DNA of 64,000 nucleotides from the NCBI GenBank assembly GCA_963514005.1, contig OY740787.1, positions 69,378,001-69,442,000 of the forward strand. The letters run 5' to 3'. Shown one piece after another: positions 20,700 through 62,049 of this stretch. The first letter of the stretch is position 1; each line of letters starts with the position of its first letter. Origin of the DNA: Raja brachyura. Taxonomy: Eukaryota. Below the pieces are notes generated by a model that saw only the letters and a list, made by a program, of their open reading frames with translations, was not told where the DNA came from and did not search any database. The position numbers and the translations under genes were made by a program.

Positions 20700-20832
20700 C
20701 GTCCTTCTCTCTCTCCCCCGCCCCCCCCCCCTCTCCCCCCCCCCCCCCCCCCTCCCCGTCTCTCTCTCGCTCTCTCTCTCCCTCTCACTCTATTTTTCTC
20801 CTTGTTCACCCCACCCCACCCCCTCTCCACCT
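20700..20832. repeat. Poly-C/(CT)n polypyrimidine tract upstream of HoxD13
   Basis: Long C runs and CT repeats, flanked by GTCACGTAACTCCCACGGAG and a triple nuclear-receptor half-site. Confidence 0.8.
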
Positions 20833-23009
20833 TGACCTTGGCCTTCATCTACTTCCGGAAAGAACCCCTTTGTCTGCATACCAGAGATGCGAGCAACTTG
20901 AAAGAGCGACTTGTTTTTTTAAAATCCTCTCCTGCATTCCCCCTACTCCCGGATTTCTGAACAACAGCTACCCGAAAGCAAATGTTAGCATATGCTTTCT
21001 CCATTGCGAAAGTAGGAGCAACTCATTTCATATATATTTTGATACATAACGAGGGATGCCATTCGAATGGTCTTAAATAAACGAGCTGCATTTCTTTTCC
21101 AATTATACTTGGGTGCAAAGGATAAGCATTGAATTCGCTGTTCAGAAATAATTCTCTCTGATTTTTCTAAACACTTTTGTAGATTTGTCTCCAAATATTA
21201 GCGGAGTGTACCGCCAGATCAGGAAAAATGTGCATCTTTAAATGAAGAAAGTAAACCAAAGGATTCACAGAAATTAATGTATTTGAGTTAATGCAAAATC
21301 GTGGATTCCGCTTGTTTTCTAAGCACCGAATCTTGCAGGTAGATTCCGTTTTGTCTCACTGAAGTAACTGCTTGTATATTTATGTTATTTGCCCCGCCTG
21401 GGTGGAGGGATGGGGTCGCCAAGAATCGCCATTCAAAACGACTTTTAGAAATCTCGTCACAATCCTAATCTTGCTCCTATATGCGATATCTAATAGCTCC
21501 TATATACCATATCTAATCTAAATCATTGTTTCTCGAAAAGTGCCATGTTTCTGAGAGTAGCAACATGATCAAGACATTTGCTGGCGCACATAATCTAACT
21601 TTGGAGGGGTTGGGAGGACATCTTCTCTGTAAATGGCCAGCTCAGCCCTTCAGACTGCCACAATATTCCATGCTCACAACGAGATCACAGTCTTATTTCT
21701 TTCCACGATCCGATTAGTTGAATTATACCATTACCCTTTTTTTAGCTGCATATAATTCATAACCTTTATGTAAAATCTGTCGCTTTCTTCGTTTAAGCCT
21801 CGATGTGAATATAACATCTAGTGCGCGTACAAACAATCTTTAAACAGTGTATGGTTTGGTGTGATTTGATGTACTGCATTAGTCGTAACATGCATACGTC
21901 GTGTAAGTAAATTGTGGTAGAGAATTAGATAGACTTTTACATCACATTGCATTGTCCTCGGGCTTGCCATAATCTAAAGATGTTTTATTCCATATTATCT
22001 GGTATATATTTTCATGCTTCTTGTATGTTTCTGCCCTGAGGTCTGACATAACAATGAGGTAAAATGGGTCAGGCACTCGAATTATGCTAGCTTGCTCAAG
22101 CAAAAGCAAGGTATTTTTGAATCTTTGCTAAAGCGGGGTTTGTTAAGAAAACCTATGACTCTGAAATCATATTTTCGCCTACTTGACGCAAATAAGTTAA
22201 AGTTCTGGCACGATCATGTTGCGCTGGGCGAGTGGACAATTTGGAATAACAGCTTTTTCGTTACAAGATATAAAGATACAAGATATAAAACATTGCCCTC
22301 AAATGCTACCATGCAATGATTTCATGCGATTTATTTTTGTACCAAACATCAATAGCACAATGCAATGATAAAATATCAGTTCTGAGTGTGATTAAAGTGT
22401 AAATTTAAGTAACTGCATCTCAGTATTTATCCCCCATAATATAACATGCTTCTATAACCTGAATGGAAACCAGTGTAAGTGTAATCGATTTAAGGCTCAA
22501 TTAGTAAAAAGGAGAATATGTAATCTTTAAAATCTGCTTGACGCTGGCGGTATAGATAGGATTGGTATATGCAATCACATATTATGATGCAAAAATGGTT
22601 GCTGCCGAGATCTTCATCAGAATACAAGAAAAGACAAAATCGGTCACAAAACGTTGCCAATCCAATAATAACGCGTGATGATACCACAATTCCATTTTCA
22701 AAATGGATATGGCAATTTTCCAAAATGTCTTCAATACTTAATTTTAACTGATAATTCAGTCAAACAAACACCTGATGTGTTCGACACATATGTGTAACTG
22801 ATTCTTCAAATTGTAGAATACATTTATTAAGTTATCACTATTTTCCAATTTAAATCTCAGCTCTATCGCATCGGTTCAAGTGTTGACGAAGAAAAGGCGA
22901 TACACGTCAACAGTGCTGGATTATTTACTATTATTTTTTTGGGGGGTGGGGGGAACAATGATTTTAAGATCGGGAGCGGAGTGCAATGGGAACTGAAGGC
23001 AGATCAGTT

Positions 23010-23120
23010 GCGTTGCGTCACGTGGTTGGGATCGACCTATCGCGTTTCACTTGCGCAGTGCACTCTAATCAGTGAAAATAAGCACCTCTTCTCACTGCCG
23101 AGCCTGCTTTTATAAAGCAC
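23010..23120 (+). promoter_or_regulatory. HoxD13 promoter (E-box, TATA-like)
   Basis: GTCACGTGGTTGG at about 23017 and TATAAA at 23111-23116, upstream of ATG 23146. Confidence 0.5.
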
Positions 23121-23145
23121 TACTTAGTTTGCTGTGGGACGTGAT

Positions 23146-58610: not shown

Positions 58611-58628
58611 GTCCACCGGGGGGCGCCG
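58611..58628 (+). promoter_or_regulatory. Candidate CTCF site between HoxD9 and HoxD8
   Basis: GTCCACCGGGGGGCGCCG closely matches CCASYAGRKGGCRS in an otherwise AT-rich context. Confidence 0.6.
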
Positions 58629-61287
58629 TCGCTCCATTATACCAAATTGTTGACTGGGGGTGAGAACGGAAAAAATATATAAAAAGAGGTTAAAAGGCAA
58701 CTAGTCCATTTTTGTATTGAATTTTCTTTAATTTAGAACACAGCAAAAGCCGAACCCTGACTTTTGAGAGGATTTTCAAAATAAAAAAATCGCATCACCA
58801 TGTAAACTCTATAAAATAGTTGCGAATTAAACGCGTGTAAACATGCGCTCGCTTAACATTGAAAGGTCCAACTGATTTCATGGAAGCGTATTATTAATTA
58901 ATTACATAGAAGAAGCTTTCTATATAAAAATATTTGTAAGAACAAAATGGCCAGATTTTTCAGGACCAGGCACACCTGTTGTAAGCCGTAGTGATTTCAT
59001 TTTTCTAACAAAAAACACCATATTTGTGCCTGCTCTTGCCTTTGTTCGAATGATGTTCATTTGCCGAAATTCTAAAATGTGATCTCTCAGCAATGGGTCA
59101 AGGCTTATACTATAAACAAGGTCGGCGCGATAGATAAACCGGAGTGGGATTCGAGCAAAGGATATAACAGGCTTTTTGTTATTTCACAATTTTAATAAAA
59201 GAATTTAGCAATAAAGAAAATTGTAACGTTTAAACCAGTGCTTCATTAGTACAATAAAAAGCACATCGTTCGAGCGACCTTGCTAGCAATTATAAATAAC
59301 AATCCATGTAGTTATTTTTGCAATTTTATATGTTTATTTCAACCGTTAAAGAGTAAAACAAATTGAGCCAATTGCACGATATTAGTTTACTATTTGCTTG
59401 AGGGGAAATTTTACAATCTTCTCAATAAAATATTTATTTCAAAAAATGCAGTCTGCTCCTGATTTTTCTGAAACAGTTTCAAGCATTCGGAAGCAGATAG
59501 AGATTTTGAAAGTAAAATAGAATAAAACGCATCACAATCACTGGTTGGCCGTGGCACGGGATTTGCTACGAGAACGATTCCCGGAATAAACCAATTTCCA
59601 TTAAAATAATGCCGAGGCCGCAAAAACAGGGAATAAAATCTTCAAATGAATCTTAAATTACAATCTCCGTTTGGAAGTGACTTTTCAATTAAAAGTAAGT
59701 CCTTTTATAAGATTTCCAATGAGACGTTTGCGGCTAATTACATTTTTAAAATATACTGGGTGCTTTATCTTAAATAGGTATTCAGCAACATTGCATAATT
59801 ACAAATAATTATATATATACATTTCCATTCGTTTTCAGCTGATCTTTGAGAGACTTATTCAGTGAATCAGATATGTATTCATTTCTATTTTTCGGATCTT
59901 TGACTTATCGTCTTTTGATAAAATGGGGTTGCAATTGTTTTCAGAAGGCAAAAAAAAAACAGGTAACACAGTTGAAATGAAACTTATTGTACACGTAGCC
60001 TTTCCAGTCTGTCAGGCCTAGTTTTTTAAATGTTAAAGTGACTTGAATGGTTTGTAAAAAAAAAAAAAGCATTGGAAAAATAATCTTAAATTGAATTGAA
60101 TTTACCAAACATGCGATCATCCAAATATCTTGGCGAAAATCAGTTGCACGCACATACATGTGTGCGGAACAAAATTAATATGTTGAATATTTTGTATTGC
60201 AAATTAATGTAAATGTTCCATATTCTGGGAAGTGTTTTCTTGGATACTTGGACTGTGGCGCTGACCGATGTCCGCGGTCTAGAAAACATTTAAAATTGGG
60301 CAAATGATCCCGTTTATGCCCATTTCAATCTTTAAACGTGGGAGTGTTACATTTGGATTAAGGGATACATCGTGTTTTAAACTGTTAATTGTCAGCTGCG
60401 TTTTTATTTAATGAAAATAAATGATAAAAGTTCAGAAGAATATAGTTGCTGTGGTCCATTACATATTGGATTTTAAATTATTGGTTGTGCCCACTTTGAA
60501 CGAACATACAGTGCATGCATCCAGGAAGAACTTGAATTATTCGGGTTAGCAGTTACTGAAAACATTGCTGTTTTTATTTCCCCGCAGCAGTTTGTGGATT
60601 GAGACAAGCATCGGAGCGTGAGGAACAAAGTTCACTGGTGAATTCAAGTTTCACCAGATCAAGCACTCTTTTCCATTAAACTTTAAGCGCAGTCGCTTGA
60701 ATTGGGGGAGAGGACAGGGGGAGTGGAGGGGGGGGGGGGGGAGGGGGGGGGGAGTTGGGATTGGGGTTTATTTCTGGGCAACTCGTGAACCTGGGAATGG
60801 ACGCCTCTAACATAGCCTTGGTATTTCTCCCGGATTTTGCAGCTCTTGATGAAATTTCAACCACAGTCTGCAAACTTCGTGCTGCCCTGCAGACCCGAGC
60901 TGCTTTCCTCGCCAATGACGTCTGCCATGGGTGAAATGATGGAAATTGTATTCAGAAGCATGATTTTCATTAACTAGTAATTAACCTCCAAGTTTCAGTC
61001 AAGCGAGCATATTTTTTTAAATATTTTTTAAAATCTGAGTCAAGGATAACTCTTTACCCCGTTCTTAGTAGACTATTGTTTCACAAAATATATTAATGCT
61101 ATTAGGTAAAACAGTTTATTTTAAACAGGCATCGGATTTTTGTGCATCTGCTTCCTATTTAGACCTAATAATGGGAATAATATTGCCAACTCACTTCAGT
61201 TTGTACGTCAACGACAGGTATCCGTGCGCCAAAGTACCTATATAAATATAAGACACACGTTTACATACTTATATGTATTGATGGCTA

Positions 61288-61383
61288 TTGATATATATAT
61301 ATTACACACACACATATTATGTATATATACACAATATATATATATATAATATGTGTGTGTGTGTGTGTGCATGTGTGTGTGTG
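61288..61383. repeat. Compound (AT)n/(AC)n/(GT)n microsatellite
   Basis: Seen directly in the sequence. Confidence 0.9.
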
Positions 61384-62049
61384 AAGCTAAAGAGACAGAC
61401 AGTGACAGGCGCAAGCAGATTTTACAAGCTTTACAGAAACATCCAAAACCAAATAATCCCTAATGTTAATTCTAACTTTAACCTTTTAGCCCTCGAGCCT
61501 CCCCCATCCCCCATTCCCCCTTTTTGACTGTGTCTTGACCTTGAGACCGGTCTCACCTTGTTGTGTTCTGAAATCTAATTGCTGTGCTGTAACCGGGCCA
61601 GTTTCATTTCTCTTCAGCTGAGTGGCGCACGTATTTCATGTTTTCTGTGATGCGGCCCGCCTAATTGTAATGAGAGGGTGCTGAATATATTAATCCGCAT
61701 GTTATCTTTTTTTTCTCCCCCCCGATCAGTGTGCCCTCTACTTTCCTAAAAAAATATCATTTCTCAGCACAGACGTGTTGTCCGCGAAGGCAGTAACTGT
61801 AAACGGCAGTCTAAAGATCTCTTCAGCCGGCTTACAACTGATCTGCGGTTTCAAAGTGAAGCAGTCACAGCACCGAGGCAGTGGTGCACCTTCAGTATTA
61901 GCGAGTATGTTGCACGGGGCATCAGTGCACACTGGACCTGCATTGCCATCATGAACAGTGTGTAGACCGAGCAAGTCAATAATATAACTCCAGAACTGCT
62001 TAAGCATTTATTTTGTTTATATTCATTGGCCACTCTTGAGTCTGCACAG

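Follow-up and report, generated by a model that had tools for sequence, protein, structure and literature searches.

The posterior HoxD cluster of Raja brachyura was analysed in a stretch of 64,000 nucleotides (hereafter the window; G000:C7:69378001-69442000, in a genome totalling 2.70 Gb). The window holds Evx2 on the minus strand, followed by Hoxd14, d13, d12, d11, d10, d9 and d8, names that we presume from homeodomain signatures and gene order. Nuclear-receptor words of the DR0 type, i.e., AGGTCA-like hexamers in direct repeat with zero spacing, are enriched around the posterior genes, as the original prediction for this DNA had proposed, and the enrichment is replicated in HoxA and HoxB. 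Since the words recur at matching positions in HoxD, HoxA and HoxB, the DR0-type elements likely predate the vertebrate genome duplications and were inherited from a single pre-duplication Hox cluster. On balance, we slightly favor the further view that these pre-duplication elements are putative docking sites for NR6A1, which would directly repress the terminal Hox genes during trunk formation.

Zero-spaced repeats in posterior Hox DNA

Previously, the 9-mer TCAAGGTCA/TGACCTTGA had been said to occur five times in the window against about 0.5 expected, and the sequence at all 11 positions then listed reads as claimed. The genome count of this word (24,753 in 2.70 Gb) gives an expectation of 0.57 (p 3e-4); dinucleotide shuffles gave a mean of 0.55 and reached five copies in 0 of 100 trials. 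TCAAGGTCA was chosen post hoc, and as such it is not significant: it ranks 43 to 127 among the 4,201 9-mers with at least three copies, and its Bonferroni product of 3 to 261 over Markov orders 0 to 5 fails the correction for all 9-mers. The overlapping, shifted word TTGACCTTG has seven copies in the window, all on the plus strand, where an order-2 model expects 0.39 (p 1.9e-7) and the genome count 0.49.

Most copies of the 9-mer had been described as DR0. This description fits 27014, 27854 and 40951 (exact 12-mers) and 26989 (one mismatch); it does not fit 61536 (three mismatches), which is an extended half-site only. The related arrays divide similarly, with one mismatch at 20833 and 35100 and two at 40576, 46158 and 49924. 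Because anterior HoxD (24 vs 14) and anterior HoxB (27 vs 14) likewise hold more of the two-mismatch class than simulations give, and the class is thus not specific to posterior DNA, the weak arrays at 40576, 46152 and 49924 were left uncounted. The window therefore counts three exact and four one-mismatch DR0 12-mers, one of the latter within Hoxd14 coding sequence, against simulated means of 0 and 0.83 (cumulative class). These sites have the DR0/extended half-site form of an NR6A1 response element. Classical retinoic acid response elements (RAREs), i.e., direct repeats spaced by five or two nucleotides (DR5/DR2), have no exact copy in posterior HoxD. Among 13 window sites, 12 are without repeat cover, and only 20827 touches a repeat, a low-complexity C/T tract. 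No RNA family explains the sites, as an Rfam scan gave 0 matches.

The words TTGACCTTG and TGACCTTGA were fixed before the HoxA and HoxB sequence was obtained, making these clusters a held-out test. Comparison DNA comprised 200 kb each of HoxA and HoxB and 200 kb flanking HoxD, along with 39 stretches of 10 kb drawn at random. Posterior HoxA and HoxB (146.5 kb) hold nine copies of TTGACCTTG where 1.16 are expected (p 3.6e-6) and five of TGACCTTGA where 1.34 are expected (p 0.012), whereas their anterior parts hold 0 of either. Anterior HoxD has two copies of TTGACCTTG and one of TGACCTTGA, one of these being the Hoxd8 site. The random stretches gave 6 vs 3.07 for TTGACCTTG and 3 vs 3.57 for TGACCTTGA, and the excess in random and flanking DNA is not significant. 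The exact DR0 12-mer occurs three times in posterior HoxA and HoxB (0.09 expected), every copy being in HoxB, and 0 times in 192.7 kb of anterior DNA. With paralogous copies of window sites removed, TTGACCTTG still stands at 5 vs 1.16 (p 0.007) and the 12-mer at 2 vs 0.09 (p 0.004). Taken without boundaries over the whole 400 kb of HoxA and HoxB, TTGACCTTG has nine copies against about 3.2 (p about 0.005, by hand calculation).

What distinguishes the posterior DNA is the arrangement of half-sites. Plain AGGTCA is not commoner posteriorly (46 vs 55 per 100 kb), and posterior AGGTCA half-sites surpass background in their tandem context (87 vs 560 sites, p 3e-6), whichever side of the core is considered. 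For this reason, a reader of DR0 fits better than a reader of monomer sites. An A following the core at its 3′ side (14/22 vs 14/31, p 0.15) is not significant alone. Exact DR5 shows the opposite pattern, with three anterior copies and none posterior; three exact DR2 occur in posterior HoxA and HoxB.

Roughly one module per posterior gene had been envisioned, and this part of the original prediction is not supported. Counted within -5/+4 kb of each homeobox, 11 sites lie at the three Hox13 genes, eight at the 10 genes of groups 9 to 12 and 14 (three of these shared with Hoxd13), and two at the 21 genes of groups 1 to 8; Hoxd10 and Hoxd9 have 0 in that interval. All three Hox13 genes carry a DR0 with at most one mismatch 2.2 to 3.0 kb 5′ of the start codon, and Hoxb13 has two exact DR0s and a one-mismatch DR0 within 5.2 kb upstream. 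The pattern is Hox13-centred, with one Hox11 module.

Modules shared between Hox clusters

Twelve window sites were aligned to the collinear HoxA and HoxB intervals, and five stretches were retested with more shuffles. Three modules show collinear non-coding similarity above chance, as expected of paralogous elements older than the duplications; the prediction that the sites are ancient is supported by these alignments between clusters that split at that time. The modules and the adjoining CTCF-type motif are as follows.

26984..27043, plus strand: module 1, a twin DR0-type site 3′ of Hoxd13, 25 nt from copy to copy, plus a TCATGAATA block and a shared spacer
27074..27086, minus strand: CTCF-type motif about 50 nt from the twin site; same orientation 3′ of Hoxa13 and Hoxb13
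40933..40976, plus strand: module 2, a composite 3′ of Hoxd11, with a GCCTTTGAACTT block and then an exact DR0
20827..20845, plus strand: module 3, a DR0-type array of three hexamers, about 2.3 kb upstream of the Hoxd13 start codon

Module 1 has its counterpart 3′ of Hoxa13, a twin with copies 26 nt apart (G000:C2:77242380-77242413). The match between HoxD and HoxA includes the spacer, the TCATGAATA block and the downstream CTCF-type motif (score 48, 0/150 shuffles). At Hoxb13 the counterpart is a single array, 113 nt from the CTCF motif. Module 2 has a HoxB copy that retains the DR0 (G000:C34 near 2162500; score 44, 0/50 shuffles); its GCCTTTGAACTT block we take to be TCF/LEF-like or DR1-like. 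Module 3 is identical at 16 of 18 nt to a site about 2.9 kb upstream of Hoxa13 (G000:C2 near 77248157; score 31, 0/150 shuffles), and its first hexamer overlaps a C-rich tract. The alignments reach past the motif into spacer, flank and CTCF site, and the motif letters are their best-kept part, while neighbouring bases diverge.

A collinear scan blind to the motif found modules 1 and 2 again but not module 3, and yielded one further element. After simple repeats were dropped by hand, an AGGTCA-type site was present in three of its five matches scoring at least 37.

18624..18664, plus strand: degenerate half-site element, its 5′ half decayed in HoxD, aligning with an exact DR0 5′ of Hoxb13 (G000:C34 near 2223409; score 37 in the motif-blind scan, which had no shuffle control)

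The CTCF-type motif, found by a consensus scan, has its core in reverse orientation between Hox13 and the next gene in HoxD, HoxA and HoxB. Aligned by itself, the CTCF part scores 34 between HoxD and HoxB (0/150 shuffles, nuclear-receptor words excluded) and 29 between HoxD and HoxA (4/150). In mouse, CTCF-binding site 6 (CBS6) lies in reverse orientation between Hoxd12 and Hoxd13 (bioRxiv 2022.08.29.505673), and the border of the topologically associating domain falls in that interval (PMC8559674). The predicted site at 27074..27086 shares interval and orientation with CBS6 and is likely its counterpart. Conservation of CTCF sites among paralogous clusters has already been published. In contrast to CBS6 as published, the window motif is adjoined by a DR0 pair, which the available text on CBS6 does not mention; likewise, Nr6a1 has 0 occurrences in the available text of two CTCF preprints (bioRxiv 2022.08.29.505673 and 2024.07.20.604409). 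The Hoxd9-Hoxd8 interval also has a CTCF-type motif, in forward orientation (58613-58625), whose counterparts are 3′ of Hoxa9 and Hoxb9.

Some of these elements may coincide with mapped ones. PMC3091776 lists conserved footprints, of which footprint 17 (fp17) is listed, with no reference given, for 10 species out of 11 in a range that runs from human to horn shark. Its table consists of coordinates only, and so our placement by offsets from horn-shark exons is a positional inference: fp17 at 26934-27156, regions VIII and IX (RVIII/RIX) at 40246-40945 and region X (RX) at 34821-35459. By position, the twin site and CTCF motif overlap fp17, module 2 lies at the distal edge of RVIII/RIX, and the array at 35100 falls inside the RX bracket. 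Module 2 thus resembles the mouse region IX silencer 3′ of Hoxd11 in place and in its nuclear-receptor words, the identity being one of position only. Gerard 1996 is said to have reported that region IX bound RARs and COUP-TFs in vitro and to have ascribed it to them, and mutation of its nuclear-receptor sites reportedly shifted Hoxd11, Hoxd10 and the sacrum anteriorly, a phenotype suggestive of relieved repression and of the same direction as that of Nr6a1 loss. Our literature search found no published paralogous copies of region IX in HoxA or HoxB.

Candidate readers of the repeats

The genome encodes the cognate receptor: the NR6A1 DNA-binding domain at G000:C35:23453843-23454049 is identical to PDB 5KRB in 67 of 69 residues. 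NR6A1 binds DR0 better as a homodimer, and a 2024 review describes, in the text available, only a repressor role (PMC10909835); NR6A1 may also be needed for activation (PMC12957460). In the mouse, Nr6a1 loss raises posterior Hox genes the more, the nearer they lie to the 5′ end, with Hoxb13 at the top (25-fold to more than 200-fold), and shifts Hoxd11 rostrally, the mechanism being undefined; reanalysed chromatin immunoprecipitation (ChIP) data gave putative Nr6a1 sites in all four Hox clusters (PMC9755267). Whether NR6A1 represses the posterior Hox genes directly or indirectly is called unclear in PMC10909835. We infer direct repression because the site map of this fish has the same gradient as the derepression seen in mouse upon Nr6a1 loss. 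If so, NR6A1 dimers or oligomers on the hexamer arrays would recruit co-repressors, and Hox13 and Hox11/10 would stay silent as long as GDF11 and miR-196 have not removed NR6A1 from the tailbud. For the twin site, the place of action would be the very CTCF boundary by which Hox13 is set apart from the remaining cluster.

Several points weigh against direct repression through ancient DR0 sites. In cells derived from embryonic stem cells, Nr6a1 loss alone leaves most posterior Hox genes inactive (PMC9755267). Only three of the 12 tested window sites align to a paralog through a stretch bearing the nuclear-receptor word, and the other nine gave no match through the motif. The shuffle nulls randomise the query and lose the motif, and so convergence could add to the scores, most of all for the short match at 20827. 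The HoxA copy of module 2 (score 33, 1/150 shuffles) has lost the DR0. Posterior HoxA as a whole has 0 exact DR0s, and its one-mismatch count, reached in 4 of 30 simulations, is not in excess of simulation. Furthermore, the boundaries between posterior and anterior DNA and the DR0 12-mer were defined after the HoxA and HoxB positions were known. Without paralogous copies, TGACCTTGA falls to 3 vs 1.34 (p 0.15), and the 9-mer of the original prediction, counted boundary-free over the 400 kb, has seven copies against about 3.7 (hand calculation, p about 0.08). In 11 of 22 posterior cores, the best partner half-site has at least two mismatches.

The last point suits another set of readers. In the main rival reading, which we think possible but rather unlikely, the sites are real and ancient and are read mainly by COUP-TF or RAR/RXR at DR0 and by ESRRB or NR5A2 at the extended half-site, with NR6A1 acting indirectly or in competition. 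Several conserved cores are half-sites with weak partners, and exons that we take to encode NR5A-like and ERR-like DNA-binding domains are found in the genome. DR0 is bound by NR6A1, COUP-TFI/II and RAR/RXR and resembles the monomer sites of ESRRB and NR5A2, but RAR/RXR on DR0 leaves reporters unmodulated (PMC4446430). A monomer reader, moreover, would not need a tandem context, yet on either side of the core this context is better than in background DNA. The density of sites also tracks the published Nr6a1 derepression gradient, with its peak at Hox13, as a role of NR6A1 would have it.

The failure of the 9-mer in the all-word correction raises the question whether the enrichment is a by-product, in which blocks of old conservation, namely the CTCF boundary and region IX, carried a few words along and chance supplied the others. 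Paralogous copies are non-independent draws, most single sites have no paralog, and the 8-mer core is not first in posterior HoxA and HoxB (rank 3 of 1,680 letter permutations and 79 of 32,896 8-mers). Nevertheless, words merely carried along would not be the best-kept part of alignments whose neighbouring bases diverge, and the excess persists without the paralogous copies and is not significant in random and flanking DNA; we thus hold this explanation to be improbable. Still more remote, in our judgement close to negligible, is an origin of the words as remnants of retroposon tails or tandem repeats, or as sites for microRNA or protein at the RNA level. Other twin-like matches in the genome do lie mostly in tandem arrays, and three of them (G000:C49:3189413, C5:121811889 and C35:10519516) share a CAATAAAC flank that is presumably a retroposon tail; these matches resemble repeat tails that give rise to DR0-like words at other places in the genome. 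TTGACCTTG is also in the sense direction in 7/7 window and 4/4 HoxA copies. HoxB copies, however, are mostly on the other strand, the window sites are almost all free of repeats, and the 20827 array is upstream of Hoxd13. The twin lies about 1.4 kb past the end of a related-species Hoxd13 RNA contig, a weak hint since contigs do not fix ends. Docking of NR6A1 on pre-duplication DR0 elements is therefore the reading that we carry forward.

Single sites, known systems and significance

The remaining sites stand singly, and they are given here with the genes around them.

10735..10743, plus strand: TTGACCTTG half-site word 5′ of Hoxd14; no paralog match
25623..25631, plus strand: TTGACCTTG half-site word just past the end of the related-species Hoxd13 RNA contig; no paralog match
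27848..27865, plus strand: exact DR0 plus a degenerate third hexamer, 2 kb upstream of the Hoxd12 start codon; no paralog match
35100..35117, plus strand: one-mismatch DR0 array in the Hoxd12-Hoxd11 interval; no significant paralog match
61535..61544, plus strand: extended half-site, not DR0, 0.5 kb 5′ of the Hoxd8 start codon; word not kept in paralogs
23146..24440, plus strand: presumed Hoxd13, of two exons; a run from a related species shows intron 23827-24187 spliced out
29866..31540, plus strand: presumed Hoxd12
37889..39251, plus strand: presumed Hoxd11
47628..49712, plus strand: presumed Hoxd10; no strong nuclear-receptor site nearby

Near 61536 only the flank aligns with HoxA (1/150 shuffles). 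In a related-species run, Hoxd12 contigs reach 1.7 to 2.4 kb upstream of the start codon, to 28112 where depth is high and to 27472 where it is low, suggesting a long Hoxd12 leader near the exact DR0 at 27854. Motif-blind matches without a nuclear-receptor word lie at 37755-37784 (Hoxd11/Hoxa11 promoter region, score 40) and 61667-61703 (5′ of Hoxd8/Hoxb8, score 43). The word GCCTTTGAAYT, picked after looking and presumably TCF/LEF-like or DR1-like, occurs three times between Hoxd11 and Hoxd10 (40934 and 42398, plus strand; 44834, minus strand) and 2,561 times genome-wide (about 0.95 per Mb); its copy at 40934 is the part kept in HoxA, HoxB and HoxD. The Hoxa10 intron carries a DR2-like repeat (G000:C2:77217868-77217877) with a one-mismatch DR0 nearby, and the Hoxb10 intron a one-mismatch DR0 (G000:C34 near 2145850).

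Of the two other clusters, HoxA is on C2, where Evx1 lies at 77.35 Mb, and HoxB is on C34. Hoxc13 was absent among the 14 matches in a HoxC test of the genome. A lone central-class Hox homeobox (G000:C1630:37119-37310, L118) at the end of a 38-kb contig is possibly a HoxC remnant, and this contig, with its one Hox-like gene, holds no copy of the core word. Hoxd14, d5, d2 and b10 are all present, and intergenic lengths differ by 1-6% from those of horn shark, as befits a cartilaginous fish. Hoxd14 (11099-12981) has an open first exon and an intron-split homeobox, its three pieces reading without a stop. A short high-copy repeat at 30933-31194 inside the Hoxd12 intron is likely a recent insertion, because related-species contigs skip it (joints 30935-31170). 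Four of 23 sequencing runs, none of the 23 being on record as RNA, were compared with the window, and the related-species reads are too close to gauge conservation; the best DNA contig covering the twin has 124 differences in 3,343 letters. The twin-like match on C49 was rejected as a Hox paralog, as it looks repeat-derived and has no homeobox in 150 kb. A metagenome scan (55 of 64 parts) for vertebrate copies of the layout of twin and CTCF motif found Hox-like DNA in 0 of 119 loci.

The window sites share the DR0/extended half-site word with known NR6A1 (GCNF) elements such as that of the Oct4 promoter, and the DNA-binding domain here is near-identical. The putative mouse Nr6a1 ChIP sites (PMC9755267, PMC10909835) have the same candidate targets; the window sites are predicted from sequence. 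Neither paper gives a site map or an evolutionary analysis in the text available, in contrast to the present work. As nuclear-receptor direct repeats at matching cluster positions, our elements also resemble the DR5/DR2 RAREs of anterior and central Hox genes (PMC8788451). They differ from these in being zero-spaced and posterior and in their predicted action as ligand-independent repressor elements, where RAREs serve activation by retinoic acid. Paralogous DR5/DR2 RAREs are reportedly the subject of Mainguy 2003. Among the Hox-linked pairs listed in the available part of PMC3595034, paralogous elements are found only at HOXA5/B5, HOXA4/D4 and EVX1/2. Our literature search found no DR0/NR6A1 site map of Hox clusters, although Gerard 1996, Mainguy 2003, Matsunami 2010 and Gurtan 2013 may hold some of the elements. 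Paralogous nuclear-receptor elements in Hox clusters are thus a known kind; new here is that they are zero-spaced, posterior and partly joined to a CTCF site.

Tentatively, and with more doubt than conviction, we suggest that the ancestral vertebrate Hox cluster had a hard-wired NR6A1 brake, with DR0s bracketing Hox13, one pair fused to a CTCF boundary site and one DR0 3′ of Hox11 beside a Wnt/TCF-type site. Such a brake would form a repressive, posterior counterpart to the retinoic-acid elements of the anterior genes. On this view, mouse region IX would be an NR6A1 site whose assignment to RAR/COUP-TF was mistaken, and the sensitivity of Hoxb13 to Nr6a1, the highest of any Hox gene, would be accounted for by the DR0 cluster upstream of it. 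In the mouse, the number of trunk vertebrae is set by NR6A1, variants of which have been associated with additional vertebrae in pigs and absent ones in people (PMC9755267; PMC12226721); gain or loss of DR0 sites could, if the brake is real, tune trunk length. The modules offer a few exact, ancient positions at which direct repression of posterior Hox genes by NR6A1 becomes testable, and they connect three lines of research: NR6A1 timing, the CTCF Hox timer and the region IX silencer.

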